DNA of 64,000 nt, taken from positions 1 through 64,000 of the IMG/VR virus record IMGVR_UViG_3300032770_000015; one strand, written 5' to 3'. This stretch comes from a virus. Below are positions 1,719-62,681 of this stretch, one piece after another; the stretch's first letter is position 1, and each line of letters begins with the position of its first letter. A program made the position numbers and the translations under genes. Below the pieces are notes generated by a model. The model did no database searches. It was given only the letters and a program-made list of their open reading frames with translations, and was not told the origin of the DNA.

Positions 1719-2073
1719 CCGTCCCTCCCCGGCGGGCTCGCGCCCACCCGCTCAACGATTTCGTGCCGCGTGCTGCGCCCGCACGTCGGGCACCAGTAGT
1801 CGCAATGCGTGACCCACGGGGCGAGGCCGTAAAGCAGCGCGCCGCAGTCCACGCAGCGGTGCGCGTGCATCACGCCTCCGGCGCCACGGCCGCCAAGGCC
1901 GCAGCAACGTGCTCGGCCCACTTGGAGCGCGGCATAAGGTTGTGCGGGCTGCATAGGCAGTGGCCGTTGTTGTACTCACCGCCCGCTTCGCATCTTCGAG
2001 TATGCGGGCAGCGGTAGGTACGGCTTCTGGTCTATGGCCCAGGTTGTGGTCATTTGTGGAAATGCAATCGGCT

Positions 2074-4533: not shown

Positions 4534-5996
4534 GCGGCCCCGGTGATCTTCGCCCGGAGGCGCTTCAGGTCGTGCGACGTGAACTTTAAGGGGTGCGCGG
4601 ACCCCGGCCCAAACTGGGCGTGCGTTGCCGCCATGATGCTGGCGTCATCGGCCCCAAGGGCGATCATCGCCCGGGCCAGGGCGGTCGGCCCGGCGACCGG
4701 GGCTGCCGGTGCCTGGGTCACTTCAGAAGGCCGAACGGCCGGAGGCGCCGCGTCGTTCCCGTCGGCCAACGATACGAGCTGCCGATCAACCGCCGCGGCG
4801 ACGGCGGCAACCTCGACGGCAGCACCGGCCAACGAGGCGGGGGCACCGATCCCGGCCGCCTCGCCCGGGTCGTCGTTCTCGACCTCGGACGCCGGGAACG
4901 GCGGCGGCGAGACGACGGTCGCCGTCCAGCGTTCGAGGTCTACGATCTGCGCCACGTTCGGGTCGGCCGGGACGTTGGCCGCGAGCCCGGCCAGGACGTT
5001 CCGGGCCAGCCACGCGCCGACCGGGGGCATCACGGCCTGCGCCGTCTGCGCGTACCGGTTCCCGAGGTTCGGCCCGATGAACTGGTAGTCGGGTGGATAC
5101 CCGCAGAGGAGCTGCTGCTCAAGCAGGGTGATGTACCGCATCTCGGTCGGGTGGAACTTCGTCGCGCCGCCGGTCAGGGTTGGCGACGGCTTGTCGAAGT
5201 CGAGCCTGACGTCCAAGAATCTTGGCCGTCCCTTCACGTGGCCGTGGGCGTTCAGGGTCCACGTGGCGGGCGGATGCGCCGTTTCCCACGCGCGGCGGAG
5301 CGACCCGCCGGGCGGCGTCGAGGCGAGGAGCGCGAGGTGCTCGGGATCGCTCGTCGGCAGGGGTGGCGGGGGCGACGGGTCAACGACCTGGCCGGTCAGG
5401 ATCGGCGCCCAGGCGTCGCGCACCGTTCGTTCGGGACGGTTCCCCGGTTCCGGGTAGTCCCAGGGGATGTCGATCTTGTGGAAGACGCAGAAGAACCGTC
5501 GCCGGATCTGCGGCACGCCGAGGTGCGCGGCGTTCAGGAGTACGTACGACGCCGCGTACCCGTATCCGCGGGCGACGGCGGTCAGCTCGTCCACGAGCTC
5601 CCGGCCGCGCTTGAACGCGAGCTGGACCGATTCCCAGGCCCAGACCTTCGGCTGGACGACCTCGAGGACGCCGAACGCTTGGTGGATGCAGTTGACCCGG
5701 GGATCTTGCCGCCACCAGTCGGCCATGATCCCCTTCTTCTGCGTCGAGATGCCCGCGCCCGAGAACGGCGCGCAGGGCGGGTTGCCGTACACGAAGTCCA
5801 CCCGTCCGGCATACTCGCGCGATGGCCAGGTGGCCGCGTCCGTTTCGACGCGGAGGCCGGGGTGGTTCGCTCGGGTCGAGGCGACGCCGTACTGCGAGCT
5901 CTCAAACTGCGCGAGCACGTCGAACCCGGCGCGCCGGACCCCGAGGGTGAACCCCCCGGCGAAGATGTGGACGCCCAGGGCGGTCGGGCGCGTCAC
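4530..5996 (-). CDS. DNA (cytosine-5) methyltransferase
   Basis: Motif I variant IFAGGF, catalytic GNPPC, WESV (ENV variant), QIRRRFF; start revised to GTG at 5996. Confidence 0.85.
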   Translation of the reverse strand: MTRPTALGVHIFAGGFTLGVRRAGFDVLAQFESSQYGVASTRANHPGLRVETDAATWPSREYAGRVDFVYGNPPCAPFSGAGISTQKKGIMADWWRQDPRVNCIHQAFGVLEVVQPKVWAWESVQLAFKRGRELVDELTAVARGYGYAASYVLLNAAHLGVPQIRRRFFCVFHKIDIPWDYPEPGNRPERTVRDAWAPILTGQVVDPSPPPPLPTSDPEHLALLASTPPGGSLRRAWETAHPPATWTLNAHGHVKGRPRFLDVRLDFDKPSPTLTGGATKFHPTEMRYITLLEQQLLCGYPPDYQFIGPNLGNRYAQTAQAVMPPVGAWLARNVLAGLAANVPADPNVAQIVDLERWTATVVSPPPFPASEVENDDPGEAAGIGAPASLAGAAVEVAAVAAAVDRQLVSLADGNDAAPPAVRPSEVTQAPAAPVAGPTALARAMIALGADDASIMAATHAQFGPGSAHPLKFTSHDLKRLRAKITGAA

Positions 5997-44737: not shown

Positions 44738-46378
44738 TTAAAAGCTTACGTTGCCTGCGTCGTTCGCCATCGTATACGTCTGCCGGACCTGGCGCACCCA
44801 ATTCCAGTAGACCGCCGCGTCGCCCTTGTTCGGCGACCGCTTCCCGGGCAGGCGCTTGCGGAGCGCCTCCTTGGCCTCGACCTGAATCTTCTTGTCCGAC
44901 GCAGGCCGCCACGTCGGGGTCGTCAGGTCGAGGATCAGCTCCTCGTCGTCGTCAATGATCAGGCGACCGTACTGCGCGTCGAGCCGGAAGAGCCAGTGCA
45001 TCTGGGCGCGCAGGTTAAGAAACTGCTCGTCCTCGTTCTCCAGCACGCCGGGCTCGGCCAGCGCGCCGCCGATCAGCTTCTGCACGTCATACCCAAGCCG
45101 CACGAGCTCGTTCGCGCACCCGACGCCGACCCCGACGTAGTCGACCCCGACGTAGTCGGCGTCAATCCCGCGCGGGGCGATGTCCGTGATCGCCAGGGTC
45201 GCCCCGAGCACGTTGGCGTCCGGGCACCGGTCGGCCGGGACCTCGCAGAGGATCGCGCCGCGCCCGCGCGCGACCGCGGCGAGATCGCCGTTTTCCGAGT
45301 TCGCCACGTCCACGCCGAGCGCCAGCGCGCCGTCGAACGCATCGAATGGCGGCGGCAGCTTCAGGTCCGGGCGCACCAGCAGCTCCGCGAGCGACCGGAT
45401 ACCGAGCGCCCGGCAGAGCTCGCGCCCGCGATCCACGGCGGCGTCGAGCCAGGTCCGGTGGATCAGCGCGTCGGACGCCTGCGCCGGGCTGACGCCCCGG
45501 ATGCGCGAGAGGTACATCGGCGACCCTTCGCCGTACTTCTCGGTGCGCTGCCGGATGGACGGCAGCGACACGGCGCCGGGGATCAGCATCGGGTCGTCGC
45601 AGACCACGTTCGGGTGGTCCAGCGCGCTGATCCGCACGTGCGTGATCCCGGGTGACACACAGAACCGGTGGAGCGAGTCCTCGCGATGGTCCGGGTTCCC
45701 GAACGCCAGCCGCAGGTTGTGCGGCGCCACCGATGTCTGCTCGAAGGCGGCCATCACCGCGCCCTTGATCCCGGGCGTCTCCTCGGTGATGATCAGCATG
45801 TCCTTCTCGTGGAAGCCCGCGGCCTTCGTCGCCACGACCTCCTCGGCGACGACCCCGACCGGAAACCCCAGGGCCTTCCACTTCTCGCCGGGTGGCGCCA
45901 TCTTCAGCGACAGGCTCGTCAGCTCGGCGGCCGGGCGGCGGCGCCGGAACCGGGGGAACATCGCGCCGAGCTCCTTCCAGATGTGGAGCTTCAGCTGATC
46001 TTCCTTCGGGGCCGCGGTCACGACGACCGAGTTGCGCCAGCAGTCGGTGAACCACAGGACCAGGGCGGCGCCGAGGAACGTCTTCCCCGTCCCGGTCGCC
46101 GACTCAACGCCGACGGACTTCCCCTCGGCGAGGGCGCGGCAGATCGCGGCTAGGGGATCGGGCGTCCCGTCCCACTTGTGCGTGGCGTAGGCGCCACCGA
46201 ACTCGGACCACACGATGGTCCGGCGCGGGATGCCCAGCACGTCGGTCATCCACAGGATCGGGTCGGCCCGCCACGCACGCAGCTGGGGGTCGTCGTCCTG
46301 CATGATGTCGCGTTCGAGCCCGGTCAAGAACTCGGCCGTCAACCGGGCGAACAGCGTGGGGCCGAGCGCGTCGGTCAT
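44738..46378 (-). CDS. terL: terminase large subunit
   Basis: SATGTGKT Walker A, ITEE Walker B, FGNP, LGVDVA nuclease, GDA. Confidence 0.9.
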   Translation of the reverse strand: MTDALGPTLFARLTAEFLTGLERDIMQDDDPQLRAWRADPILWMTDVLGIPRRTIVWSEFGGAYATHKWDGTPDPLAAICRALAEGKSVGVESATGTGKTFLGAALVLWFTDCWRNSVVVTAAPKEDQLKLHIWKELGAMFPRFRRRRPAAELTSLSLKMAPPGEKWKALGFPVGVVAEEVVATKAAGFHEKDMLIITEETPGIKGAVMAAFEQTSVAPHNLRLAFGNPDHREDSLHRFCVSPGITHVRISALDHPNVVCDDPMLIPGAVSLPSIRQRTEKYGEGSPMYLSRIRGVSPAQASDALIHRTWLDAAVDRGRELCRALGIRSLAELLVRPDLKLPPPFDAFDGALALGVDVANSENGDLAAVARGRGAILCEVPADRCPDANVLGATLAITDIAPRGIDADYVGVDYVGVGVGCANELVRLGYDVQKLIGGALAEPGVLENEDEQFLNLRAQMHWLFRLDAQYGRLIIDDDEELILDLTTPTWRPASDKKIQVEAKEALRKRLPGKRSPNKGDAAVYWNWVRQVRQTYTMANDAGNVSF

Positions 46379-50110: not shown

Positions 50111-50586
50111 GGGGATACGCCTCAGATCGTTGCAGTAGGATTTTGCTACCGGGTTCAATCTACGCTGGCCGCGCGGCCGCAGCGGTCTTCCGGGCCGGGT
50201 CGGACGCCCCAGCGCCGCAGGCGCCCACTTCGGTATCACGATACCGGGTCGGGGAACGGCGGGGGCGGGACCAGGGACCACGGGTCTACATGGTGTCGGC
50301 AAACCGGATTCCCGACCGGGGCGGTACCCTACGGGGTACCCCCGGCGGAAACGGTTGCCGCGGGATGCGTCTACGCGTGGAATCGAGACGTTTTCGTCAC
50401 GTTAAGCACGTCTACCTGCATGGAGTTCTTGCCGTAGCCGCCGCCGGGCCGGAGCCGCCGGGGGGCGACGGCGTGCGGTCACTACGACGTGCGTAGACGC
50501 GCGGGGGCCACGCCTGGCGGCCGATCCGGGGCGCGGGCAGGCCGGGGCGTAGGTCCGTGGTCGTTCGCCCCGCGTACGTGAACCTC

Positions 50587-53236
50587 GTAACCCGTTCGGG
50601 CGCCGAGCGTTACATCGACTTAACGGTTCGGGAACCGTTCGGTCCGGGCGCCGGATGATTCCCGGTCGCACCTGATACCGGGTTGACGTAACGCGCGAAC
50701 GTACGCCCGTAAAGCGTTACGGCGTAACGGGTTACAGAAACGACTGCATATAATATACGTTACGTTAAGTAAGCCCGAATAGGCCGCAAGTGGCGTCGCG
50801 GCGCGGGTTTACGGCGTCGGCGCCCGGTCGCGGCGTGTTACGGGTTCGGCGCCCGATGACCTAGGACCACGCGGCGGCGCCGAAACCGGCCGACCCCGGC
50901 GCGGCGCGGTTCGCGCGCGGATCGTGACCAGGCGGCCTAGCGGCGGCGTCGTACCGTGACGCGTGCGACGTTCACGCAGACGACCCGATCCGGCGCTCTT
51001 CCGGGCGACCGGGCGGGCGCGCGGCGTCTCACACGTCTACGGGGGCGTCGTGTTTCAAGACGCAAGGCTGGGCAGAGTGGGCCAAAGCATCTTCCCGACC
51101 GCGAACCGGTCGAAGGGGCCTATAAGTGAAAGTCCTTCGTAGGGTCTTCGGCGTTATTGGGGCGATTCGCCCCACAACGTCGGCATTCCGCGGCACTGCG
51201 GCGATTCGCGACAGATGGCTATCGCATAATGCGTCACTGCGGCATTCTGCGACACGACTGTAAAGATTCACGACAGTGGGGCATTTCGCCCATGCAGCAA
51301 TCGCATTTTGCGGCACTGTCGCCATAGCGCTCCGCTGCCGATCCGGCCGACCCGACCCGGGGCGTCGCCGACCGGGCGGCGCGGCCGCAAGCCTCTCCCA
51401 TGTCCACGGGCGCGTCGAACCCGCCGGGCGGGGCGTACCCCGTAGGGGTACGACCCCTGGCCCGTACGGGTACGACCGACGCGCGCCCGAACCGTTAACC
51501 TATTCCCGATCCTATTCCCGTGGCGCGTCGCCGACCGCGTAACCCCGTGGTCCCTGGAGCTTTGCGCCGCGTCCCGCGTCCCGCCGCGACCGTCGCCGAT
51601 CCGGCGCGGCTGCAACCTATTCCCGGCGGTCGCGGGCGCCGTTAACGGTAGCGCGGCCGACGGCGCCCCGGCGCCGTTTCCGGGCAGGCGCAACCGTTCC
51701 GTGGCGCGGCGGCGCCGTTTCCGGCCGTCGTCGCCCCGGAACCCTCGGCGCCCGGCCGACTCCCGCGCTGCTCCGGCCTGCCGCCCGAACCCCGTCCCGT
51801 CGGCCCGCGTCGCGTGGCCCCGGAACTGGTCGCCGCCCCCGTCCGCGTAGACGTGCGGAGAAGCGTGATCCCGCCGCGCCCGGCCCGAACGTAAAGTGGT
51901 CCGTCGTCGTCGGTTACTCCGCCCCGGACCGGTCGCCCGACCGAACGCCCGGGCGTCGGGGTCGGCGCGCCGCTCGCGTGAACCTCGCACGTGACCCTGT
52001 CGTTACAGTATCGTTACACGTTCGTTACATCGGGTCGGCCGGTCGCGGCACGGTTTTCGCGCGCCGCCAGAAGTGTAATCGTTTTGTAACGGAGAAATTT
52101 CCGTGCCAGGCCCGGGATTCGCACGCCGCCGCGGAATGCGGCGATGTAACGATCCGATTACAAGGCGACGAACGGGCCGCCGTGGCACGGTTTTTTACGA
52201 CCCTTGCCGGTGACCCGGAGAAGCGTGCCCCGCGCGCTGCGTGAAACCGGCGGAAAGCCAGGCGCGGCGCGGGTTTCCGCGATTCACGCCGGGTCGGTCG
52301 GGCGGACGGCCGCGCGGTCTTCCGTTCGCACGTCTACGCGGAACGTCGCACGAACGCCCCCGGAAGTGGCGTCGCGGCGCCGTTTCCGGCACCCGGGCTC
52401 GTCGGTTTCGACCCCCGGCACGTCGCGGGGCCGGACCGGGCGTCGCGCCGGGGCGGAATGTAACGATCCGGTTACATTCGGCCGGTCGGCGCCGCGTTGG
52501 CACGATTTTTCAAACGTGCTACGATGACCCGTACGCCCCGACCCGTCGCGGAACCGGTTTGTCGGTAAACCCGCGCCGCGTAACGGGTTACGCTACGTCG
52601 CCGGGGCGCGGCCGTATCCCGATAACCCCCACCCCCCGGCAAACGGGTCGTAACCCCGTACGCCGTAACGGTTTACGACCGGTCGCGAAGACGGCCCCCG
52701 TTTCCACGTCTACGGTCATCCTCGCACGCCGCATTTCGCCGGGGATCGGACCCGTCGGGTATGGCCCGCCGCCCGATTCCCGACCTCGGCGCCCGGCGTT
52801 CGCCCGACCGGACCGGGCGCACGACCCCGGCCGACGCCCGCCCGGCGTCGCCGCCGCCCCGGGGCGGCCCGATCCGGCGGGGGCGCGGGTCCCGGGCAGC
52901 CCAGGTCGGAATTCGCGCGTTTATAGGAGAGGTCGTAACCGCGTACGCCGTAACGGTTTACGGGTGTGATCTCAAGGCCCCCGCCGCCGCGCCCCCGGGC
53001 GCCGAACGGCGCAAAACGGTCCCAAACGGCCGATCCGGAGGTGACACGTTTGCACGCGCGCGGAAGCGTCGTAACCCCGTGGGAATACGGAAGTTACGGC
53101 GTTTTCGTCGTGCGCCCATTTTTCCGGTCGCGCCGGACCGTCCAAAATGCCCCGGTTTCGGGACCGCCCCCGCCGACCCGGTAGAATCGCGCGTATACTA
53201 GCACGACCCGTAACCCGTTACGCCGTCGCGCTTTAC
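50587..53236. repeat. dispersed 27-bp GTAA-N19-TTAC motifs
   Basis: Copies at 50587, 50709, 52565, 52650, 52935, 53071 and 53210; variants at 50786 and 51539. Confidence 0.75.
50743..50770 (+). other. dif: dif-like XerC/XerD recombination site
   Basis: ACTGCATATAA-TATACG-TTACGTTAAGT, 11-6-11 layout; right arm matches E. coli XerD arm TTATGTTAAAT at 9 of 11 positions. Confidence 0.7.
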
Positions 53237-53257
53237 GGATGTAATCGGATCGTTACA
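52145..53257. promoter_or_regulatory. TGTAA-N8-TTACA operator-like palindromes
   Basis: 52145-52162, 52459-52476 and 53240-53257; the third is the exact reverse complement of the first. Confidence 0.65.
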
Positions 53258-53775
53258 CATCTACGGCGACGGCGGCCCGGGATTCGCTACGTTTTCGGGT
53301 CGCGGACCCCGGAACGCGGCGCGACGCCGTACCGACCGGGAAAACCGCCGGGGGAACCGCCGGGCCCAGCGCGCCGCGACGATACCGGGAAGGCGAAGCC
53401 GGAACCCCCGAACGAACGAACCCGCGCGACGGACGACGGCGCGGGTCGGGTGAACGAAGCACCGACGGGGATGGTCGGATTAACCGGAACCCCCGCCGCC
53501 GGACCCCCGACCCGTACTGGGGCGACACCGCCCCCATCGTCCGACTGGTCGTCGCGGGCCGCCCGCCCGGCGCGCCGGAACATCGGCCGCGAACCCGGGG
53601 CGAACGGGCGGGGGTTTTCCGCCGGGGGCCGTTCCCCGAACGCGGACGCGACCCGCCACCGTTCCAGCGCACGTCGTCCCGCCGGGGCGTCGAATCCCCG
53701 GCAGGACATTCGCAGAAACCCCGCCGACCGGTCCGGCCGCGCGGGGCGTATCCCCGAACCGAAAGGAACCGACCC

Positions 53776-53991
53776 GTGGTCCCGATCCGCCTCACGCTCG
53801 ACCCGCTGGGCGCCGGGTACGTCGAACTCGTCGCCGTCGTGCATGACGCGACGTACGACGCCGACGTGCGCCGGACGATCCGCGTCTCGCTCGAATCCTT
53901 CGGCCCGTCGGCGACCGTCGTTGCCCTGCGGGACGCGAAAGGGAACCTGGTCACGGCCGCCGACTGGGCGCTCTTCCCGTCGGTCGCATAA
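53776..53991 (+). CDS. early hypothetical protein
   Basis: GAAAGGA RBS. Confidence 0.65.
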   Translation: MVPIRLTLDPLGAGYVELVAVVHDATYDADVRRTIRVSLESFGPSATVVALRDAKGNLVTAADWALFPSVA

Positions 53992-54096
53992 CCCGTCGCC
54001 GCCCGGCGTCGAATCCGGGCGGCGTCATACGAACCGAACGCCCGCGCCGGACCGGCGCTGGGCGAGCCGAAACCCGAACCGAAAGGGACCGTCCGA

Positions 54097-54411
54097 ATGA
54101 AGCCCGTGAATCCCGCCTGCGCCGACGATACGTCGCTGGCCGGGTACGTCGACACGACGTACGCCGCGCTCGTCGCTGCCTTCGGTCCGCCGAACGGCCG
54201 GAGCGACGGATACAAGGTGGACGCCTGCTGGGTCCTGGCCGCCGGTGGGCGGATCGTAACCGTGTACAACTGGAAGGACGGCCCCGCGTACCGGGGCGCG
54301 GCCGGTACGCCGGTCGAGGCGATAACGACGTGGCACATCGGGGCGCACTTCGCCCCGGCGGCGCTCGCCGCGATGCGGCGCGCGTTCCCCGGCCGCGTTT
54401 CGGCCGCGTGA
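54097..54411 (+). CDS. early hypothetical protein
   Basis: GAAAGGGA RBS; TTYAALVAAFGPP...YNWK...WHIG. Confidence 0.7.
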   Translation: MKPVNPACADDTSLAGYVDTTYAALVAAFGPPNGRSDGYKVDACWVLAAGGRIVTVYNWKDGPAYRGAAGTPVEAITTWHIGAHFAPAALAAMRRAFPGRVSAA

Positions 54412-54674
54412 CGAACCCGACGGCCCCGGGCTTCGAAACTCGGGGCCGCCTTACGATCCGAACCGCCCGCGCCGGACCGGCGCCGGGCGGCGCTGCGTTG
54501 GGCACCGGGCCACCGGCCCGGCACGCGACCAGATGCCCCGGGGGTTGGATTCGCCCGGCGGTCGCCGCCCGCCCGACGCCCGGGGGCTTCGAAACCCCCG
54601 CGCGTCATCGCTGAACGTCGCCGGGCCGGACGGCCGGGCGACCCCGTACCCGCCGGACGAAAGGAACCGTACCC

Positions 54675-54833
54675 GTGGCCCCGCACGCGAACGAAGACCG
54701 GATCATCGCACAGCTCGACCGGGACGCCGTCTACCACGTCGCCGACCGCCTCGCGTTCCGCGTCGCCGACGACGCCGCGATGGCCCGCGCCCTGCGGCCG
54801 TACGTCGCCCGCTGCACCGCCGTTACGTTCTGA
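54675..54833 (+). CDS. early small protein (52 aa, not in ORF track)
   Basis: GAAAGGA RBS, GTG start, stop immediately before the next repeat element. Confidence 0.6.
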   Translation: MAPHANEDRIIAQLDRDAVYHVADRLAFRVADDAAMARALRPYVARCTAVTF

Positions 54834-55028
54834 ACCCGTCGCCGCCCGGCGTCGAACCCGGGCGGCGCCTTACGATCCGAACGCCCGCGCCGGACCGGCG
54901 CTGGGCGAATTCTTCCCCGATCCGAACCCGCACGACCAGAAAGGGACCGACCCGATGACCTCGACCCCGATGGACGAGCTGGCCGCCCTGCTCGTTCGCA
55001 TCCAGCGCCGTCGTCCGGCGCCCGCCCG

Positions 55029-55319
55029 ATGAACCCCGCCGTCGTCGCCATCGTCGTCGCGGCCGTCCAGGACGCGCCGACCCCGTACCGCCTGGCCGAC
55101 CGCATGGCCGCCCAGCGCGCCATCGTCGCCGCCGTCGCGCCGTACTTCGGCGGCGACCAGCTCGCCGCGTCGCTCGCGGTCGCCCCGGCGTACGCCGCCG
55201 CCGTCGAGCGCATTGCGGCGGTCCGGCGGAACCGGATCACCGGCCTGTCGTCGTCGCTCCCGGCCGGGGTCGTCATCGGCGACCGCGCCGTGCCGATCTC
55301 CGCCGTCGCGGGTGACTGA
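55029..55319 (+). CDS. early hypothetical protein
   Basis: Coupled to a 25-aa ORF at 54955-55032. Confidence 0.55.
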   Translation: MNPAVVAIVVAAVQDAPTPYRLADRMAAQRAIVAAVAPYFGGDQLAASLAVAPAYAAAVERIAAVRRNRITGLSSSLPAGVVIGDRAVPISAVAGD

Positions 55320-55445
55320 ACCTACCGACGAGGCGTGACCCGCCCCGCGTCGCCCGGGGGCTTCGAAACCCCCGGGCGTCGTTCGCTCCGAACGTCCGCG
55401 CCGGACCGGCGCTGGGCGAGTTCTTCCCCGAACCGAAAGGGACGT

Positions 55446-55823
55446 ATGGAACACGACGCGCGGCACCTCTTCGAAGACCGGTACGGCGACGGTCACCCCT
55501 CGACGCGCTACCACGCGCGGCTGATCATCGCCGGGGCCGAGAACGGCCTCGCCGGATACGGCGTCGTCGTCATCCCGGCCGGATCGTCGGCCCGGCAGGT
55601 CCAGGGCGGGCCGCTCGTCCCTGGCCCGTGGGCCGCGACCTTCGGGCTCTGCACCGTCATCGACAACGCGGGCGGAACCGGCGCCGAGGTCGCGCGCGAA
55701 ACCGCCCGGGGCGACGCCATCCGCGTCGCGGCGGGCGATACCGTCCGCCTGACCGACGCCGTGACGGTCCGCGTTACCATCGGGCGGCGCGAGTACCCGG
55801 ACCTGACCGTGGTGGACCGGTAG
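55446..55823 (+). CDS. early hypothetical protein
   Basis: Start revised to ATG at 55446 after GAAAGGGA RBS. Confidence 0.65.
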   Translation: MEHDARHLFEDRYGDGHPSTRYHARLIIAGAENGLAGYGVVVIPAGSSARQVQGGPLVPGPWAATFGLCTVIDNAGGTGAEVARETARGDAIRVAAGDTVRLTDAVTVRVTIGRREYPDLTVVDR

Positions 55824-55924
55824 GGCCGCCGGGCGGGGGCTTCGAAACCCCCGCCCGTCATCGCTGACCGACGGACGCCGGACCGGCGGGCCGTCCCTAT
55901 TCCCCGATCCGAAAGGACGAGCTG

Positions 55925-56596
55925 ATGAAGCGCTACCAGATCATCACGGCGAACCGCGCCACGAGGTCGCAGGCGGGGTACGCGCAGACGGAATCGTCAA
56001 CCCTGGAGCTGGGCGAGTCCCTGTTCGTCACCGCCGAGAAGGCCGTCCCGCGCGGCGCCGGGGTCGAGGTCGAGCTGTTCGACACGGTCAAGAACAAGGT
56101 CCTGCGGTCCCGGTACTTCCCGACGCTCGACGAGGCGCGGGCGTCCGTCGCCCGGCGGCTCGCGAAGCACGTCGAGAGCGAGGTCGAGGCGGCCGAGGCG
56201 TCGCTGGCGAAGTTCACCGCCGAGATCAACCGTAACGTGGCGTCGCTCCGCGCCTGGGCCGTGGCCCGTGCGAACGGCGCCGACCTGACCGACTGGCGGG
56301 GCGGGAACACCGACGTGGAGTCGCCGTTCCGCTGGGCCGACGACTCGGTGGCCGCCGCCGCCCGCCTGATGGTCGCCCGCGAGGTCGAGGAATATCTGGC
56401 GACCGACCGCGCGCCGTCGGCCATCGTCGCCGCGCTGCGGACCCAGGTGCTGCGGTCGGCCCGGAACGGGCTGTCGCGGTCCACGTCGTCGTCGGCGAAC
56501 CTGACCGAGGAGGCCCGCCTCGCCGCGCGGGCCGCGATGGTCGAGAAGCTCGAAACCATCGTCGCGTGGGCGACCGACATGGGCGTCGAGGTCTGA
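55925..56596 (+). CDS. early hypothetical protein
   Basis: GAAAGGA RBS, 223 aa. Confidence 0.7.
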   Translation: MKRYQIITANRATRSQAGYAQTESSTLELGESLFVTAEKAVPRGAGVEVELFDTVKNKVLRSRYFPTLDEARASVARRLAKHVESEVEAAEASLAKFTAEINRNVASLRAWAVARANGADLTDWRGGNTDVESPFRWADDSVAAAARLMVAREVEEYLATDRAPSAIVAALRTQVLRSARNGLSRSTSSSANLTEEARLAARAAMVEKLETIVAWATDMGVEV

Positions 56597-56599
56597 ACC

Positions 56600-56662
56600 G
56601 CCGAGGGGCGGGCGCCGACGAACCGGCGCCCGTTAAGGCACGGCCCGGTCCCAAGTCCGGGC
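56600..56662 (+). ncRNA. twister ribozyme (P5-type permutation) #1
   Basis: GCC-GAGGG-P1 hairpin-TAA-GGC-AC..CCGGTCCCAAGTCCGG; predicted cut 56634/56635. Confidence 0.88.
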
Positions 56663-56757
56663 GGAACGCAGGACGCCGCGCCAGGTATGGTGCCGGGTAA
56701 GCGTCCGTGCCGAACCCCATCACTTGAGGTGACATATGCGGTAGACCCCCGGGTAAC

Positions 56758-56835
56758 GCCGAGGGCGACGATCCGCCGGGCCGTACGCGCGCCCCGGGTC
56801 GTCGTAAGGCGCATGGCCGGTCCCAAGCCCGGCCG
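56758..56835 (+). ncRNA. twister ribozyme #2
   Basis: Same architecture with CCGGTCCCAAGCCCGG; predicted cut 56805/56806. Confidence 0.88.
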
Positions 56836-56859
56836 AACCCGAACGAAAGGAACGACCCG

Positions 56860-57234
56860 ATGTCGCTTCGCTGGCAGATGTCGAACGAGCAGAGCCCCGC
56901 GTGGGTGAACCTGTCGCCCGTGATGCGGGAGACCATGATCTTCGGCCTGGTCATCGCCGATATGGGCGAGATCAAGGACGAGGCCGCCGCCGAGAAGTTC
57001 TGGACCCGGCTCCGGATGGCCGAGCTGGCGCAGGGCGACTCGTTCGTCCACCAGACCCCGGCGGGCGACGGCCCGATGATCCAGCGTTGGATCACCCTGG
57101 CCGACTGCCGGGCGGCCATCGGGCTCGGCGCGAACGTGCGGACGACGACGGACGCGCAGTACAATCGGAAGGTCGCCGGTATCCTGCGCGACACGGCCGT
57201 CGCCGAGCTGCGGCGGGCGAAGGACGCAAAGTAG
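56860..57234 (+). CDS. early hypothetical protein
   Basis: GAAAGGA RBS; flanked by twisters. Confidence 0.7.
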   Translation: MSLRWQMSNEQSPAWVNLSPVMRETMIFGLVIADMGEIKDEAAAEKFWTRLRMAELAQGDSFVHQTPAGDGPMIQRWITLADCRAAIGLGANVRTTTDAQYNRKVAGILRDTAVAELRRAKDAK

Positions 57235-57298
57235 CCGAGGGGCGGGCGCCGATCCGTCGGCGCCCGTTAAGGCGCACGGCCGGTCCCAAGCCCGGCCG
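57234..57298 (+). ncRNA. twister ribozyme #3
   Basis: Same architecture; predicted cut 57268/57269. Confidence 0.9.
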
Positions 57299-57322
57299 AA
57301 CCCCAAATGGAAAGGATGCCGG

Positions 57323-57811
57323 ATGAACTACGCGAACGTGCTAGGCGAGGCGAAGGGCAAGTTTGGCGCGTGGACCGCCTGGTATGTGCTGGGCGAGGCC
57401 GCCACCGGGTACGCGGTCCGCGCGCAGTTGGCGCCCGACCTGACGGTGAACCCGTTCACGGACACGGACATCTACGGCGCGGTCAAGGAGATGAACAGCA
57501 CGCAGCGCCCGGCCGGGTTCGACGGCGCAGCGCGGAAGATCCACACGCCCCGGTCGGTGTACTGGTGGCAGCCGCCGTCGGATACGCGCGACGCGGCGGT
57601 CATCGCGTCCATCGCCGAGCGCGTGCGGCGGTTCCTGAACGACGACTGGTCGTATGTCGGCCTGCTCGTCGAGGTCCGGCACCCGCCCTGCACGCTGTGC
57701 GGCGAATCGCGGGTCACGTCGGCCGGGCTCTGGGGCATCGAGTCGGACAGCGACGACGGGTACGTGATCGAGACGCTAGGCGACCTCGTGAACGAGGCGA
57801 AGGACGAGTAA
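57323..57811 (+). CDS. early hypothetical protein
   Basis: GAAAGGA RBS; flanked by twisters. Confidence 0.7.
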   Translation: MNYANVLGEAKGKFGAWTAWYVLGEAATGYAVRAQLAPDLTVNPFTDTDIYGAVKEMNSTQRPAGFDGAARKIHTPRSVYWWQPPSDTRDAAVIASIAERVRRFLNDDWSYVGLLVEVRHPPCTLCGESRVTSAGLWGIESDSDDGYVIETLGDLVNEAKDE

Positions 57812-57812
57812 C

Positions 57813-57875
57813 GCCGAGGGCGACCGCCGCGCGGTTCCGGCGGTCGTAAGGCACGGCCCGGTCCCAAGTCCGGGC
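57813..57875 (+). ncRNA. twister ribozyme #4
   Basis: Same architecture; predicted cut 57847/57848. Confidence 0.88.
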
Positions 57876-57899
57876 GACCCCATCAACGAAAGGACGTGT

Positions 57900-58100
57900 A
57901 TGGCGCTCGTGATGCTGCCCCGTACCGACGACCTGCCGCCGGTGTACGTGAACCCGGCGCACGTCGTCGGCGTCGAACCGTCGGTGACCGACCCCGGCGC
58001 GCCGGTCTGCACCGTGTACGTGCTCCCCGGGAACCGGGGCCACTTCGTCGCCCTGTCGGCGCTCGAGGCCGCCCGCCGCCTGAACGGGGGTGCCGCGTGA
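57900..58100 (+). CDS. early small protein
   Basis: GAAAGGA RBS; VYVNPAHVVGVE. Confidence 0.65.
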   Translation: MALVMLPRTDDLPPVYVNPAHVVGVEPSVTDPGAPVCTVYVLPGNRGHFVALSALEAARRLNGGAA

Positions 58101-58477
58101 GGACGAAGCTGAACGCCCTGTTCAAGGCGCTGCGCCAGGCGGGCGTCGCGGCGCACCAGAACTACGAGTGCTGCCAGGGGTGCGGCTGCGCCCGCGTCGC
58201 GTCCGAGATCGGCGTCGTCGGCGCGTACGTCTTCTATCACCACCAGGACGCCGAAGACCTCGAGCCCCCGCGCCATCACCGTGCGGGCGACGGCTGGCGG
58301 CCCGGCGTCTACCTGGCGTACGGGATCGTGTCGGCCGTGGAGCTGCCGGACGCGGTGGAAGAGGCCCTGCGGCTGAAGGTGGGCGAGCTGATCCGGAGGC
58401 TCGCCACCGTGGTCGGGCTCGCCGTCGAGTGGGACGGGACGACCGCGCAGCGCATCTGGGTCACGGAGGCCGCGTGA
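58097..58477 (+). CDS. DUF6891-like protein
   Basis: LNALFKALRQAGVAA.QNY.CCQGCG ... VFYH.QD ... VEWDG; start revised to GTG at 58097. Confidence 0.6.
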   Translation: MRTKLNALFKALRQAGVAAHQNYECCQGCGCARVASEIGVVGAYVFYHHQDAEDLEPPRHHRAGDGWRPGVYLAYGIVSAVELPDAVEEALRLKVGELIRRLATVVGLAVEWDGTTAQRIWVTEAA

Positions 58478-58800
58478 TCGACACCCTCGAGCCGTCGCCG
58501 CGCCGCGAGCCCACGCGGCAGATGTTCATCGTTCCGAACGACCCCGCCGGGCGGGCGGTCATCGCCACTCTGCGCGCATACCTGAACCGGGCGACCTACC
58601 GCCTGCGGGTCGTCGGCCGGGGCGTCCGCGCCGACCGCGCCCGCGAGTTCCGCCGCACGCACCGGGCCTGGGCGACCCGGCGCCCCGACTACGCCTGGAT
58701 TCCGCGCCGGTACGCGACCCGCCTGGCCGTGTACATCGAGCGCAAGGACGGGATCGGGATCAACTGGCAGCAGCTCCGCACGCTGTACCCCGTCCGTTAG
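58474..58800 (+). CDS. early hypothetical protein
   Basis: GTGA overlap, GGAGG RBS. Confidence 0.6.
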   Translation: MIDTLEPSPRREPTRQMFIVPNDPAGRAVIATLRAYLNRATYRLRVVGRGVRADRAREFRRTHRAWATRRPDYAWIPRRYATRLAVYIERKDGIGINWQQLRTLYPVR

Positions 58801-58864
58801 CCGAGGGGCGGGCGCCGATCCGTCGGCGCCCGTTAAGGCGCACCGCCGGTCCCAAGTCCGGCGG
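58800..58864 (+). ncRNA. twister ribozyme #5
   Basis: Same architecture; predicted cut 58834/58835. Confidence 0.88.
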
Positions 58865-58890
58865 AACCCACTGGAGAAAGGCTGGGCGAG

Positions 58891-59232
58891 ATGTCCGACG
58901 TGCAGATCACGAAGGTTCACGCCGTCGAGTGGCACCGCAACGGCGTCGGCGGGCTCGGGTTCCACGTCGTCCTGTTTGACGAGGCTACGGAGGGGCGGAT
59001 GATGGCCGTGGACTTCGGCCCCGAGGCCGACGCGGCGACGGATTCCTTCGGGGTCATCGCGGTCTTCCAGCTCGACAAGCTAGCGGCCGGTGACGTGGCC
59101 TTCGGGTCGAACTCGTGGCGCGGCGACCACTACACCGGGCCAGTCCGGGCGGTCATCACGGCGGCCGAGGCGCGGGGCGAGACCGGGAAGCTCGGGCCGT
59201 TCTCGCTGCCGCCGCAGCTTCGCCGGAAGTAG
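58891..59232 (+). CDS. early hypothetical protein
   Basis: WHRNGVGG.GF.V ... NSWRGD; flanked by twisters. Confidence 0.7.
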   Translation: MSDVQITKVHAVEWHRNGVGGLGFHVVLFDEATEGRMMAVDFGPEADAATDSFGVIAVFQLDKLAAGDVAFGSNSWRGDHYTGPVRAVITAAEARGETGKLGPFSLPPQLRRK

Positions 59233-59293
59233 CCGAGGGGCGGGCGCCGATGGATCGGCGCCCGTTAAGGCACGGCCCGGTCCCAAGTCCGGC
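59232..59293 (+). ncRNA. twister ribozyme #6
   Basis: Same architecture; predicted cut 59266/59267. Confidence 0.88.
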
Positions 59294-59319
59294 GACCCAT
59301 CTCAAAGGAGGCAGCCGGT

Positions 59320-59634
59320 ATGAGCGCACGCGTCTTCGTCTGGCCCGAGCGGACCTACGAGGAGCTGGGCGCCGAACGCTGGGCCGTGTCCTGGAAGACC
59401 GTGCGGCCCGGCGCCAACGTAAATGAGGAGATCGACTTCGACGTCGACCTCGTGGACCGCGCCGTCGCCTGCCGGACCCACGCGGCGGCGGTTGCCCGCG
59501 CGCGGCGCGCCGCCGCCGAGGACTACTTCGGCGGGGCGGTCGTTCAGCGCCAGGTCGTCGCGTGGGACGTCGAGGAGGACCGCATCGCCGAGTGGGCCCC
59601 CGCTGGTGAACCCGAATATGTGGAGGACCGATGA
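59320..59634 (+). CDS. early hypothetical protein
   Basis: AAAGGAGG RBS. Confidence 0.7.
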   Translation: MSARVFVWPERTYEELGAERWAVSWKTVRPGANVNEEIDFDVDLVDRAVACRTHAAAVARARRAAAEDYFGGAVVQRQVVAWDVEEDRIAEWAPAGEPEYVEDR

Positions 59635-59990
59635 GACCGCGCACGTCGATCATCGTCGCCCTTCGGCCCGGCCGAACCCAGGCCGCGGCCGACCGCCGCG
59701 AGCGGATGGAGACCATCATCCTGGCCGAGGCCCGCGCCCGGGGCGTCCGGTATGACGGGTCGGGGAACTACGTCACGGGGCCGCGGCGCGGGACGCGCGA
59801 GCTTTTCTTCGTGACGCGCCGGCGCGACCTGACCGTCGCCGCCGTCCGCGACCTGAAGGCCGACGTCCGCGAGGCGGAGCACTTCGCCTACCGGACGTAC
59901 TTCATCACCCGGGACTATGGGACCGGCGCCTGGCTCGTGAACCGCGGCGGCCGGACCGTCGCCGCCGCCGCCCGGGCGCTGGTCCGTTAG
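59631..59990 (+). CDS. early hypothetical protein
   Basis: ATGA overlap; C-terminal part resembles 62682-62957 (RDLK.D.R...HF.YR..). Confidence 0.65.
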   Translation: MRPRTSIIVALRPGRTQAAADRRERMETIILAEARARGVRYDGSGNYVTGPRRGTRELFFVTRRRDLTVAAVRDLKADVREAEHFAYRTYFITRDYGTGAWLVNRGGRTVAAAARALVR

Positions 59991-60113
59991 CCGAGGGGCG
60001 GGTGCCCGTCCGCGATGCGCCGCTGGGTCGAGCCGGGTTCCGACCGGCGCCAGCACGCGGTCTCGCACGACGTGGTACCCGTTAAGGCGCACCGCCGGTC
60101 CCAAGCCCGGCGG
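59990..60113 (+). ncRNA. twister ribozyme #7 with extended P1
   Basis: Same core with a long insertion in P1; predicted cut 60083/60084. Confidence 0.82.
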
Positions 60114-60140
60114 AACCCCACTAGAGAAAGGCTGGGCGAG

Positions 60141-60500
60141 ATGGATGAGCGGCAGGCATCGCGTGAGGCAGCCGAGGACGTGCGGTACGAGCGCTGGGAG
60201 GCGCTATTGTTCAAGCACGTGCCCGGCCTGACGCGCGGGAAGAATCCGGCGTGGCGGTCCGACTTGATGATGGAGGCCGATGGCGGCCCGATCTTCATGA
60301 AGTTCATGTCGGACGGTGGCGTGGATGACACGCCGAACGGTCTGGCGCTGCGGGCCTGGCTCCGGGCGCGGAAGATTCCGTTCCGGCAGTATGGGCTGAA
60401 GGAGGACCCCGGCCAGGTGCGGGTCTTCACGCTGTCGCGGCGGGCGTTCGCCCGGGTCGAGGCCATTCTGCGCGGGCTCGAGCGCCGCGCGGCGCGGTAA
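60141..60500 (+). CDS. early hypothetical protein
   Basis: Start revised to ATG at 60141; leader GAGAAAGGCTGGGCGAG identical to that before 58891. Confidence 0.65.
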   Translation: MDERQASREAAEDVRYERWEALLFKHVPGLTRGKNPAWRSDLMMEADGGPIFMKFMSDGGVDDTPNGLALRAWLRARKIPFRQYGLKEDPGQVRVFTLSRRAFARVEAILRGLERRAAR

Positions 60501-60532
60501 GCCGAGGGCTGCTGGTGCTAAAGGTCGCAAGG

Positions 60533-60597
60533 GCCGAGGGACGGGCGCCCCGATCCGGGCGCCCGTTAAGGCGCGCCGCCGGTCCCAAGTCCGGCGG
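60533..60597 (+). ncRNA. twister ribozyme #8
   Basis: Same architecture; predicted cut 60567/60568. Confidence 0.88.
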
Positions 60598-60618
60598 AAC
60601 CCCGAACGAAAGGACCGT

Positions 60619-60951
60619 ATGATCACGACGAAGCGGCTGATCTTCCACCTCGACGCGGCCATCGCGCGGCACGTCCGCGACTGGCAGCGCCTGACCGAGC
60701 ACGGCACGATTGCCGTCGACTCGGACGTGATAGCGCTGTACGCGCAGGACATGGCCGCGCTAATGCGGGCGCGGTCGGCGTTCTGCCACGCCAGGTTGGT
60801 CGAGGAGCACAGCACGTGGGACACGGCGACCGTCGCCCGGCTGCTGCGCCGGGGCGCGCGCATCTTGCGCGACCGCGACACGGCGGTCACCGACCACTTT
60901 CCCCGCCCGCTCGTCCTGGCGGTCGGGTCGCTGGTCGGCGACGGCGCGTGA
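60619..60951 (+). CDS. early hypothetical protein
   Basis: GAAAGGA RBS. Confidence 0.65.
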   Translation: MITTKRLIFHLDAAIARHVRDWQRLTEHGTIAVDSDVIALYAQDMAALMRARSAFCHARLVEEHSTWDTATVARLLRRGARILRDRDTAVTDHFPRPLVLAVGSLVGDGA

Positions 60952-61196
60952 TCAACACGCAGCGCGCCCGCGCCGCGCTTAACCGGCTCATCGCGGCGGC
61001 CGACGACACGGCCGTTGACCAGGCGTTCCTCGACCGCTTCCTGCGCCGTGCACCGACGTATGCGAATGCGTGCGAGGCCTGCGGGAAGCAGGTCGCCACC
61101 ACCACCATCCTGGGCCACGGGTACTGCGCCCACTGCGGGAACGTCGCGCTCGAGGTCATCGAGGCCCGGCGCGCCCGCCGAAAGGAGACCGCGTGA
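60948..61196 (+). CDS. small zinc-finger protein
   Basis: CEACG ... CAHCG; GTGA overlaps. Confidence 0.6.
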   Translation: MINTQRARAALNRLIAAADDTAVDQAFLDRFLRRAPTYANACEACGKQVATTTILGHGYCAHCGNVALEVIEARRARRKETA

Positions 61197-61618
61197 AGAA
61201 GGTCCGCCACCGGACGACCCGCGCCACGCTGCTGGTCGTTGACCGCCTGAACCTGACCGACCTGCCCGGAAAGGATCTCGCCGGGGCCGACCTCGCCGAG
61301 GAGGACCTGGGCGCGACGAACCTGCGCGCCGCCAGCCTGCGCGGCGCCGACCTCCACGGGGCGTGGCTGCGCCGGACGAACCTGAACGACGCCGACCTCC
61401 ACGCGGCCGACCTGCGCGGCGTGGACGCGCAGGGCGCGGACCTGCAGCGCGCGAACCTCTCGAACGCCGACCTCACCGGGGCTGACCTGCAGGGCGCCGA
61501 CCTGCGCGGGGCAAACTTCGCCGGGGCGTGCTTGACCGACGCCGACCTGCGCGGCGCGAACCTGCGCGGCGTCGCCGTGACGGTCGGCAACCGCACCATC
61601 CTGACGTCCAACGCCTAA
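61193..61618 (+). CDS. pentapeptide repeat protein
   Basis: Tandem A(D/N)LxG repeats; start revised to GTG at 61193 after AAAGGAG. Confidence 0.9.
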   Translation: MKKVRHRTTRATLLVVDRLNLTDLPGKDLAGADLAEEDLGATNLRAASLRGADLHGAWLRRTNLNDADLHAADLRGVDAQGADLQRANLSNADLTGADLQGADLRGANFAGACLTDADLRGANLRGVAVTVGNRTILTSNA

Positions 61619-61680
61619 CGCAGAGGAGGGCCGGGACCGATCCCCGGCCCTAATGCGGCGGCCCGGTTCCAAGCCCGGGC
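61619..61680 (+). ncRNA. twister ribozyme #9 (divergent, covarying)
   Basis: CGCA-GAGGA-P1-TAA-TGCG-GC..CCGGTTCCAAGCCCGG; predicted cut 61651/61652. Confidence 0.85.
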
Positions 61681-61710
61681 GACGTTCACCCCCGAAACGA
61701 GGGAGCGCTG

Positions 61711-62106
61711 ATGAAGCAGACCCACGTGATGAACCGCGCGACGGCGGCCGAGCTGGGCGATGCCCTGCTCGCGGCGGCGGGCGACATCGCGACCCGGTAC
61801 GGCCTCGAGGTCGAGGCGGCGGCCGGGTCGTTCAGCACGACGGAGTTCAAGGGCTCCGTCCGGTTCAAGCTGCCCGCGACGAACCCCCGCGTGGCCGAGA
61901 AGCTCGCGGCGGACTTCGCCGACCTGCACCTCAACCCGGCCATCGTCGGCTGCCAGATGACGGTGCGCCGCCACACGTACACCGTCACCGGCGTGAAGCC
62001 CTACGCCAAGTACTGCATCGTGACCCGCCGCGATGACGGGAAGACGTTCATGTTCCCGTACGCGACGGCCGAAAAGCACTTCCCGACGATGGTCACCCGG
62101 CCGTGA
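61711..62106 (+). CDS. early hypothetical protein
   Basis: GAGGGAG RBS. Confidence 0.7.
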   Translation: MKQTHVMNRATAAELGDALLAAAGDIATRYGLEVEAAAGSFSTTEFKGSVRFKLPATNPRVAEKLAADFADLHLNPAIVGCQMTVRRHTYTVTGVKPYAKYCIVTRRDDGKTFMFPYATAEKHFPTMVTRP

Positions 62107-62414
62107 CCGACCACACCGGGGAAGTCTACGGCCCGGCGGTCCTGCTCGGGACGCTGCCGGTCGGCGCGCGGTTCCGGTCGGTGATCGTGGACGTGCCGCC
62201 GCGCGGGTTCCGCCCGCTGCCCGACCGGATCAAGTACGGCACGCTCGAGGATCTGTCGTCCGCCTGCGCCACGGTCACCGTCGAACGGGTCGTGTCGCGG
62301 ACGTTCACGACCGAGGAAGGGAAGGACGTGACCCTGGCCACGGCGTCCGAGCGGACGACGTGGAGCCTCGGCACCGTGGTCGAACCCCTGCTCACGCCGG
62401 AGGTGCTCGTGTGA
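62103..62414 (+). CDS. early hypothetical protein
   Basis: GTGA overlap. Confidence 0.6.
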   Translation: MTDHTGEVYGPAVLLGTLPVGARFRSVIVDVPPRGFRPLPDRIKYGTLEDLSSACATVTVERVVSRTFTTEEGKDVTLATASERTTWSLGTVVEPLLTPEVLV

Positions 62415-62681
62415 AGACGCTCCTCGCCGTCCTGGCGGCGCTCGCCGCCCTGAAGTACCTGACCGACCCGTCGCGCGACCCGCTGGGCGAGCTGCGCCGC
62501 CGGGGCGCCCTGTGAACTACCGCGCGTACTTTCGCGGGCGGTCCGTCGTCGGGACCGCGCCGAACGTAGAGACCGCGCAGCGCGAGGCCGCCAAGCTGCT
62601 GGGCGCCCGGAAGTACTGGGAGGTCCAGATCGAGCAGGTGGCCGCCAACGTCAACCCGCCGGAACCGAAGGAACCTGCACC

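Follow-up and report, generated by a model that had tools for sequence, protein, structure and literature searches.

A repeated two-hairpin unit between early genes of a high-GC phage, in an operon shared with twister ribozymes: a candidate messenger RNA processing module

The IMG/VR record IMGVR_UViG_3300032770_000015 is a complete virus genome of 88,562 bp with direct terminal repeats, and bases 1–64000 of it form the stretch analysed here (the window). Within an array of small + strand genes in this window there are seven copies of a two-hairpin unit, all on the + strand between 53676 and 55896, with zero others in the 88,562 bp. The unit is a real, phage-specific structured repeat that was previously uncatalogued; no description of it was found in the literature, in searches that were not aimed at its sequence. 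It fits best with the intergenic cassettes that recur in the early regions of phages; its geometry, unusually, is like that of a tRNA arm, and it alternates with twister ribozymes in the same operon. The interpretation preferred here, tentatively and with a probability of about 0.4, is that the units act at the RNA level as intercistronic messenger RNA (mRNA) processing and stability modules of an early operon of small orphan genes, and that they are cut in trans.

Copy number and location of the two-hairpin unit

A first-pass annotation, made from the sequence alone, had described seven intergenic copies of an unrecognised two-hairpin element and had put it forward as a candidate new ribozyme or processing RNA. 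All seven were found on the + strand, with starts displaced by 0–2 nt from those first proposed. In the window the loop motif CKTCGAAH is found 33 times, where 17.2 ± 4.0 would be expected, and is flanked directly by 6–10 uninterrupted pairs on only seven occasions, all on the + strand between 53688 and 55847. No further copy with a NNTCGANN loop (8 nt, centred on TCGA) and a stem of at least 5 pairs is present on either strand of the whole genome. A covariance model (R1) built from the seven + strand copies scores them at 61–90 bits, while the next-best + strand place in the 88.6 kb scores 18 bits. On the reverse strand of the copy loci R1 reaches at most 35.5 bits, an asymmetry that is partly by construction, the model having been made from the + strand.

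Copy 1 (53676–53746; R1 71.3 bits) is in the leader before gene A and has no gene upstream; hairpin 1 occupies 53676–53707, with the loop CGTCGAAT at 53688–53695, followed by a linker at 53708–53718 and by hairpin 2 at 53719–53746, with the tip CCGGTCCGG. Copy 2 (53995–54063; 89.6 bits), between the TAA of gene A and gene B, is made up of hairpin 1 at 53995–54026 (loop CGTCGAAT from 54007), a linker at 54027–54039 and hairpin 2 at 54040–54063. The TGA of gene B precedes copy 3 (54419–54488; 82.9 bits), where hairpin 1 (54419–54450, loop CTTCGAAA from 54431) contains one G-U pair, the linker is at 54451–54464 and hairpin 2 at 54465–54488, with no gene after it. Copy 4 (54575–54642; 61.4 bits) lies before gene C, its hairpin 1 (54575–54606, loop CTTCGAAA from 54587) having a C-C mismatch at position 7, its linker being at 54607–54616 and its hairpin 2, at 54617–54642, having the tip GGCC-GGAC-GGCC. 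Past the TGA of gene C and before gene D is copy 5 (54838–54906; 83.8 bits), with hairpin 1 at 54838–54869 (loop CGTCGAAC from 54850), linker at 54870–54882 and hairpin 2 at 54883–54906. Copy 6 (55349–55417; 89.8 bits) is past the TGA of gene E and before gene F, with hairpin 1 at 55349–55380 (loop CTTCGAAA from 55361), linker at 55381–55393 and hairpin 2, containing one U-G pair, at 55394–55417. Copy 7 (55828–55896; 64.0 bits), past the TAG of gene F and before gene G, has hairpin 1 at 55828–55859 (loop CTTCGAAA from 55840), a linker at 55860–55872 and hairpin 2 at 55873–55896, with a 5-nt bulge on its 3' side. In every copy the helix of hairpin 1 starts at the first base given.

Five of the seven copies are therefore 3' of a stop codon, at 3, 7, 4, 29, and 4 nt (copies 2, 3, 5, 6, and 7, respectively), and six lead on to AAAGG and a start codon, which agrees with the first-pass placement of most copies between a stop codon and a ribosome-binding site. 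Copy 3 leads instead to copy 4, with no gene between. The spacer that separates these two copies (54489–54574) has a predicted long hairpin (about 54489–54540; GCGCUGCGUUGGGCACCGGGCC...), which may be what is left of a cassette now lost, or else a third structural element.

Anatomy of the unit

In each of the seven copies the helix of hairpin 1 is exactly 12 positions long, with 11 pairs and one mismatch, which refines the variable but paired GC stem of roughly 10 bp first described. Read outward from the loop, the mismatch is at position 8 in copy 1, at position 7 in copy 4, and at position 11 in copies 2, 3, 5, 6, and 7. A 5'G-C3' pair closes the helix at position 12, and the base at -1 is C, in 7/7. 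The base directly after the helix is A, A, U, A, U, G, and A in copies 1 to 7 and is unpaired in six of them; the next base, position 14, is always U. The loop is of 8 nt, C-K-UCGAA-H, in which C1, U3, C4, G5, A6, and A7 are invariant, and occurs in the variants CGTCGAAT (two copies), CGTCGAAC (one) and CTTCGAAA (four), just as in the initial description.

The linker is 10–14 nt when counted from the 12-position helix, close to the 11–14 nt first estimated, and has the consensus W-U-(A)-C-G ... G-A-A-C. In hairpin 2, of 24–28 nt, a small bulge or internal loop divides an outer stem of 4–6 pairs from an inner stem that ends in GGAC(C); the tip is CCGGACCGG in five copies, copies 1 and 4 having those given above, so that a bulged second stem usually tipped by CCG-GAC-CGG is again as first described. 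Past hairpin 2 there is a C/A-rich leader of 13–25 nt, then AAAGG, with the start codon 5–10 nt further on. The distance from the start of the helix to the start codon is 97–102 nt in five copies and 117 nt in copy 5, and that from the end of hairpin 2 to the start codon is 29–48 nt. The copies are mosaic: copies 2 and 5 have the stem and hairpin 2 in common, copies 3 and 5 the linker, and copies 4 and 7 the start of the linker.

Evidence that the structure is selected

Compensatory, two-sided changes were found across the seven copies in 7 of the 11 pairs of hairpin 1 and in 2 of the 8 pairs of hairpin 2, using RNAalifold and explicit pair counts; MAFFT misaligns hairpin 2 of copies 1, 4, and 7, each of which forms its own bulged hairpin when read singly. 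Paired cells make up 93.2% of the total, against 75.9 ± 2.6% in 500 shuffles, none of which reached the observed value, and only 36–54% of cells are paired when the partners are slid by 1–3 columns. Six of the eight loop columns are invariant, against 7 of the 24 in the helix of hairpin 1. That the unpaired bases are more conserved than the paired ones is the reverse of what neutral decay would give, which suggests that they are recognised in a sequence-specific manner.

The z-scores of single-sequence folds are weak in this GC-rich DNA, at -0.7 to -1.9, and an 11-mer scan for words that the units have in common with other parts of the genome returned only GC-rich noise. A closing stem joining the flanks, which would make a three-way junction, was considered and rejected, the minimum free energy (MFE) folds of the seven units having none in common. 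The loop and linker had also been thought potentially complementary in the first-pass annotation, and this part of its description of the linker is not supported: no covariation indicative of a pseudoknot or kissing interaction was seen when the alignment was read by eye, which with seven copies has little power. Copies 3 and 5 have identical linkers and different loops; the linker of copy 7 has CGAC, which would suit a GUCG loop, but its loop has UUCG; and the linkers of copies 2 and 5 have CGAA, which would suit UUCG, but their loops have GUCG.

Twisters in the same operon

Past gene G the punctuation of the array switches, and twisters fill the later intercistronic gaps of the same + strand array. 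Eight matches to Twister-P5 (RF02684) were found with Rfam on the + strand, at 56600, 56758, 57234, 57813, 58800, 59232, 60533, and 61619 (spanning 56600–61678), scoring 47–57 bits against a gathering score of 37.6. A ninth twister-like candidate at 60039–60110, also on the + strand, scores 27.4 bits, which is below gathering, and may be a degenerate or variant copy. The observation that the two-hairpin units occupy the positions that twisters occupy downstream is thus upheld; indeed, in four of the five cases where a unit follows a stop codon it begins 3–7 nt past it, paralleling the positions of the twisters.

The layout of these twisters is GCC-GAGGG-[8-12-bp GC hairpin]-UUAA-GGC-ACGGC-[CCGG-UCCCAAGY-CCGG], followed by a C/A-rich leader of 10–20 nt and AAAGG. 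The order of hairpin, short linker (UUAAGGCAC in the twisters), hairpin, leader, and AAAGG is therefore common to twisters and units, as is the intergenic position, but the units lack the twister core (GAGGG, UAA, CCCAAG) and any Rfam match. Twisters cut at the U-A of UAA, and therefore the upstream message ends in a GC hairpin and the downstream message begins just before a hairpin, leader, and ribosome-binding site. By analogy, the conserved linker of the unit would stand where the twister has its cleavage site.

Operons of this kind are also seen elsewhere. An unrelated, lower-GC phage contig (IMGVR_UViG_3300030329_004873, here L418) has 10 Twister-P5 in 5 kb (126–5083), one per intergenic gap, each before a C/A-rich leader and AAGGAG, and its operon ends in a canonical U-tract terminator near 5930–5960. 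The inner-hairpin loop of the L418 twisters, GTTTAAAC, is palindromic and conserved while the stem covaries, which is the same pattern as in hairpin 1. The twister motif CCGGTCCCAAGYCCGG is present in at least 114 IMG/VR viral stretches, several of which have 2–6 copies, and twister-punctuated phage operons appear to be common.

A proposed module for intercistronic processing and stability

Under the preferred interpretation, a host endoribonuclease would cut the polycistronic transcript in trans, either at the foot of hairpin 1 or within the linker, which is conserved and single-stranded. The message upstream of the cut would then be capped at its 3' end by the very stable 12-position GC helix, and the downstream message would start with, or just before, hairpin 2, followed by the C/A-rich leader and AAAGG. 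The layout of these products would be that which the twisters of the later gaps make in cis, with two hairpins separated by some 10 nt in which the cut falls, then a leader and a ribosome-binding site, and it is mainly because of this parallel that a role in RNA processing is favoured. The structure, copy number, strand, covariation, and position of the units are observed; their action as RNA, the cleavage itself, and the enzyme responsible are inferred from these.

Comparable arrangements are known. The early genes of phage T7 are separated by RNase III processing hairpins, each a single long irregular structure extending over about two turns of helix, and intergenic regions with two hairpins flanking an RNase E site have been engineered. 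The units resemble both in being intercistronic structures that separate cistrons and would leave protective terminal hairpins; they differ from the T7 sites in having two short separate hairpins and a conserved loop. Transfer RNA-like processing signals are familiar from the tRNA punctuation model of mitochondria.

The most specific candidates for the nuclease would be RNase P, cutting 5' of the helix, and RNase Z, cutting after the unpaired base that follows it. These two are favoured because the geometry of hairpin 1 resembles that of a minihelix of the tRNA acceptor and T arms. The 12 helix positions, present in 7/7, are the length of the stacked acceptor and T stems; there is a G-C closing pair with C at -1, and an unpaired "discriminator" base in 6/7 followed by U and not C; the loop has UUCGA or UCGAA, and the units lie between cistrons. 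Model hairpins made of an acceptor stem, T stem, and T-loop are described as substrates that RNase P cleaves (PMC11143913), and RNase Z is described as cutting after the discriminator, with suppression by a C directly downstream (PMC7479834). Both enzymes are reported to read the T-loop end of the 12-bp stack, and long non-coding RNAs are reported to mimic tRNA to recruit RNase P (PMC4810234). Within the interpretation of the units as processing modules, about half of the weight is put on these tRNA-maturation enzymes, and the other half on a generic cut of the linker by RNase E/J or another nuclease, with both hairpins serving as end protectors. A phage "tRNA punctuation" that brought in the RNase P or RNase Z of the host by means of minihelix mimics, with mimics and ribozymes exchangeable for one another, would be new, though less radical than a new ribozyme, and is rather improbable when taken by itself.

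Several observations weigh against this interpretation, in whole or in its more specific form. All of the compensatory changes are swaps of G-C to C-G, which fit a DNA hairpin, or an RNA of either strand, equally well, and the evidence for the + strand is thin, with two G-U pairs (copies 3 and 6) against one C-A mismatch (copy 1). The covariation comes from seven paralogous copies in one genome, with no homologue found in the other genomes searched, and the fixed length of the helix could have been inherited from a common ancestor and not selected. The loop is of 8 nt where a T-loop has 7 nt, with a U-U-C-R-A pentamer; its own pentamer is UUCGA in 4/7 and GUCGA in 3/7, position 2 being G in the latter, with UCGAA invariant. 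In addition, the 3' CCA is present in 0/7 copies, there is no D arm and no anticodon arm, and in 5/7 copies there is a mismatch at the second pair from the base of the helix, close to the putative RNase P site. The proposal of the first-pass annotation that the unit might mimic a tRNA elbow gains support from the helix length, closing pair, and flanking bases, and is weakened by the size of the loop and by the presence of UUCGA in only 4/7 copies.

Nor is there detectable tRNA ancestry, ARAGORN having found 0 tRNA or tmRNA genes both in the window and in the whole genome, and the Rfam tRNA model being blank too. A phage-encoded RtcB, CCA-adding enzyme, RNase III domain or RNase Z-like metallo-beta-lactamase was not recognised, and the nuclease must therefore be assumed to come from the host, which is a further point against the interpretation.

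Possible promoter or attenuator cassettes

A different explanation, improbable on balance but of real weight, is that the units are cassettes like the PeSLs of T4-type phages. Hairpin 1 would then attenuate or pause upstream transcription, the rest of the unit would be a non-canonical promoter or a 5' stabiliser, and the conserved units of about 100 bp would be patches of homology for the shuffling of orphan genes. PeSLs are described as being conserved over about 100 bp, as having GGGG...CCCC stem-loops, as flanking ORFans, and as recombining (PMC2839356). The likeness is considerable: units of 97–117 nt from helix to start codon flank unrelated orphan early genes in a plastic region, their hairpins have stems of G-runs and C-runs, their mosaic structure suggests exchange, and copies 3 and 4 are adjacent without a gene between. 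The units differ in the second hairpin, the conserved loop, the fixed-length helix and the operon held in common with ribozymes, and in lacking both an AT-rich tract and a recognisable σ70 promoter; the conserved loop and the fixed 12 positions are left unexplained if they are PeSL-like.

The first-pass annotation had noted that the units might prove to be simply repeated promoters. By sequence this is not borne out, a σ70 scan of 50400–62500 having returned two promoter-like sites (52497 and 58976) and none in any unit, with the limit that the consensus used was of the Escherichia coli type and the host is not identified. Copies 3 and 5 do contain TACGAT, which is the -10 hexamer of the predicted promoter at 52497, but 4/7 copies have no TANNNT in the linker. 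Phage N4 has hairpin promoters. Neither region 2 nor region 4 of a phage σ70-type sigma factor was found, nor was a T7-type single-subunit RNA polymerase, although the latter is a weak blank because the control matched nowhere; with this proviso, a private class of promoter is less likely.

As to attenuation, the units share with intrinsic, rho-independent terminators a stable GC hairpin just past a stop codon, but they differ in having no U-tract and a conserved loop, and copy 1 has no gene upstream of it. There are 1–3 T in the 8 nt after the helix, and a terminator scan lists none of the seven units, in agreement with the first-pass judgement that they are not intrinsic terminators. Mycobacterial RNA polymerase has been reported to need a U-tract at terminators. 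Canonical terminators are not enriched anywhere in the window, and the phage therefore offers no reference for the terminators of its host. Seven efficient terminators in series would, in addition, starve the twister-bearing genes downstream, which need read-through.

A possible binding site for a protein

It is also conceivable, though unlikely, that a protein of the phage or host binds the RNA loop on its fixed-length helix, the unit being a translational operator, a nut/boxB-like antitermination site or a site for a chaperone. The pattern of conservation suits this, in that the loop (6/8 columns invariant) and the base of the helix (C at -1, the G-C closing pair, U at position 14) are kept while the stem varies, and the one-directional units adjoin ribosome-binding sites in 6/7 copies. 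No candidate binding protein was identified, however, and the ribosome-binding site is 13–25 nt past hairpin 2, with no consistent fold that would sequester it. Lambda nut and HK022 put are known phage RNA sites, and the fact that nut-like sites normally number one or two per phage counts against seven such units.

The Cluster K mycobacteriophages are described as having repeated start-associated sequences of unknown function with upstream inverted repeats, SAS and ESAS (PMC3203893). Like the units, these motifs recur in one direction only, directly ahead of the starts of some of the non-structural genes, and have imperfect inverted repeats on their upstream side. The sequences differ, and whereas the ESAS conserves the repeat itself, the unit varies its stems and conserves its loop. 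The SAS 13-mer, allowing up to 2 mismatches, was found in the 88.6 kb 0 times on the + strand and once on the - strand, and in none of the units.

A possible undescribed ribozyme, or an element of the DNA

That the units are themselves an undescribed self-cleaving ribozyme, which would cut the early polycistronic RNA between cistrons with a core of loop 1, linker, and bulged hairpin 2, was one of the two suggestions of the first-pass annotation, whose interpretation as a whole is partly supported. The units are in the same positions as the 8–9 twisters of one operon, and unpaired nucleotides are conserved while stems covary. They match no known family: the Rfam 15 scan of the window at gathering scores returned only the eight Twister-P5, all outside the units, and no ribozyme family was found even at E ≤ 10, a permissive scan of 53100–56650 having given five matches of 15.6–23.5 bits, far below gathering, none of which was to a ribozyme or tRNA family. 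Motifs near twisters and hammerheads have given new ribozymes before, the RAGATH set being described as 3 ribozymes and 33 motifs of unknown function (PMC11061315), so that the prior for a motif near twisters is about 3/36.

Self-cleavage is nevertheless a less likely reading than cleavage in trans, and on present evidence very improbable. The two hairpins are independent and on a flexible linker that varies from 10 to 14 nt, and there is no supported pseudoknot or junction, and no sign of a compact core: loop-linker pairing lacks covariation and the MFE folds lack a common closing stem. Known ribozyme classes are widespread, but the unit was found neither in the 80 twister-bearing phage loci scanned, of at least 114, nor in the other collections searched.

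That the unit is an element of the DNA only, a hairpin or cruciform that serves recombination or replication or is bound by a protein and does nothing as RNA, would be consistent with the exclusively G-C to C-G compensatory changes, the palindromic loop centre (TCGA or TTCGAA), and the mosaic copies, but is very improbable. The strict co-orientation with the genes, and an order that runs from stop codon through helix and second hairpin to ribosome-binding site, argue for the transcript. Also against a DNA-only element are the asymmetric ends of the loop (C...A/T/C), the variable stems, which a protein reading the sequence of duplex DNA would not tolerate, and the lack of an integron attC core, RYYYAAC being present in 0/7 units and GTTRRRY only in the spacer after copy 3.

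Search for relatives

The first-pass annotation had proposed a scan of phage metagenomes for the unit, and no relatives were found in the collections searched here. The collections were searched with exact IUPAC patterns and then with R1 on the stretches listed, so that diverged relatives can have been missed. The best R1 score was 14 bits in 23 loci of TerL relatives (≤52% identity), 22.6 bits among 80 of at least 120 IMG/VR stretches with one pattern, 18.5 bits in 20 of 20 IMG/VR stretches with a second pattern, and 26.3 bits among 80 of the 94 stretches with the metagenome pattern. The second-best metagenome match (stretch L197, 25.2 bits), the only one inspected, is inside long open reading frames. 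In INPHARED (50,697 phage records) blastn gave a single chance match of 58 bp, in two accessions of one phage. Among 80 of the at least 114 twister-bearing viral stretches the best R1 score was 20.6 bits, and a crude script found no repeated family of T-loop-like hairpins in these 80 loci. Since no homologues were found, covariation could be judged only across the seven copies of one genome, and not across genomes as had been proposed.

A 16-mer of hairpin 1, in one stem variant, is present in at least 120 stretches of the GTDB species-representative genomes, and the 80 of these that were listed are all single matches. In most, the stem does not extend past the 4 pairs of the query, and a few are real long hairpins. 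RNA anti-CRISPRs are mimics of CRISPR repeats, present as solitary repeat units; CRISPR-repeat-like arrays of the 16-mer were not seen among the 80 GTDB stretches. In Agromyces humatus and A. cavernae (L279 and L301) the end of a gene is followed by orthologous GC hairpins of 12 bp whose loop is likewise CTTCGAAA, and these look like terminator-type hairpins of the Microbacteriaceae. Another twister-bearing phage (L437, 7811–7841, with the same element in L410) has a 12-position hairpin with a T-loop-like loop of 7 nt, TTCAACA, located past a stop codon and just before a GGAGG ribosome-binding site, about 480 nt downstream of a twister. This is possibly a similar device, and is a single case found a posteriori.

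Genome and regional context

The phage genome, of 69.5% G+C, has PHROG matches to portal, large terminase, tail proteins, helicase, and methyltransferase, and the phage is a singleton, the top TerL identity being 52% in IMG/VR and 56% among 5.8 billion proteins. No RNA sequencing run was found to contain the locus; the one run listed, of DNA from a wetland metagenome, may be where the sequence originated. The late genes occupy the - strand as far as the terminase gene (44738–46378). The late and early arms are separated by a control region of some 3 kb, largely non-coding, at about 50.5–53.7 kb (50500–53670 of the window). This has one good σ70-like promoter (TTGGCA-17-TACGAT, 52497–52525), three GGCACG(N)TTTTT motifs (about 52040, 52180, and 52500), and repeated CACGTCTACG words together with GTAAC...GTTAC inverted repeats. 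All of these control-region motifs, the full promoter included, are absent from all seven units.

The + strand array of small genes starts at 53.7 kb. Gene A (53776–53991, GTG start, TAA stop) follows copy 1, gene B (54097–54411, ATG, TGA) copy 2, and gene C (54675–54833, GTG, TGA) copy 4. Gene D (54955–55032, ATG start), after copy 5, overlaps gene E (55029–55319, TGA stop), while gene F (55446–55823, ATG, TAG) and gene G (55925–56596, ATG start) follow copies 6 and 7, respectively; all seven are on the + strand. No Pfam family above threshold was found for genes A to G, and a comparison of them with each other revealed no paralogues. The protein of gene G has no relative in IMG/VR and among 5.8 billion proteins matches only itself. 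The fact that the genes are orphans and mutually unrelated indicates that the two-hairpin units have been kept independently of them.

Significance for phage operons

What the units mean depends on which of these explanations is correct. If they are promoter or attenuator cassettes, the principle of orphan-gene shuffling seen with PeSLs would extend to a high-GC phage, and if they cleave themselves they would be a new class of ribozyme. If they are cut by host tRNA-processing enzymes or by another RNase, as is preferred here, then twisters and sites cleaved in trans would be interchangeable separators of cistrons. The purpose of such ribozymes is described as still open (PMC6765202), and this interchangeability, if true, would explain why phages carry them. 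Twister-rich operons are not confined to this phage, L418 being a second, unrelated contig that has one, and the presence of two kinds of "punctuation" in one gene array is a natural experiment.

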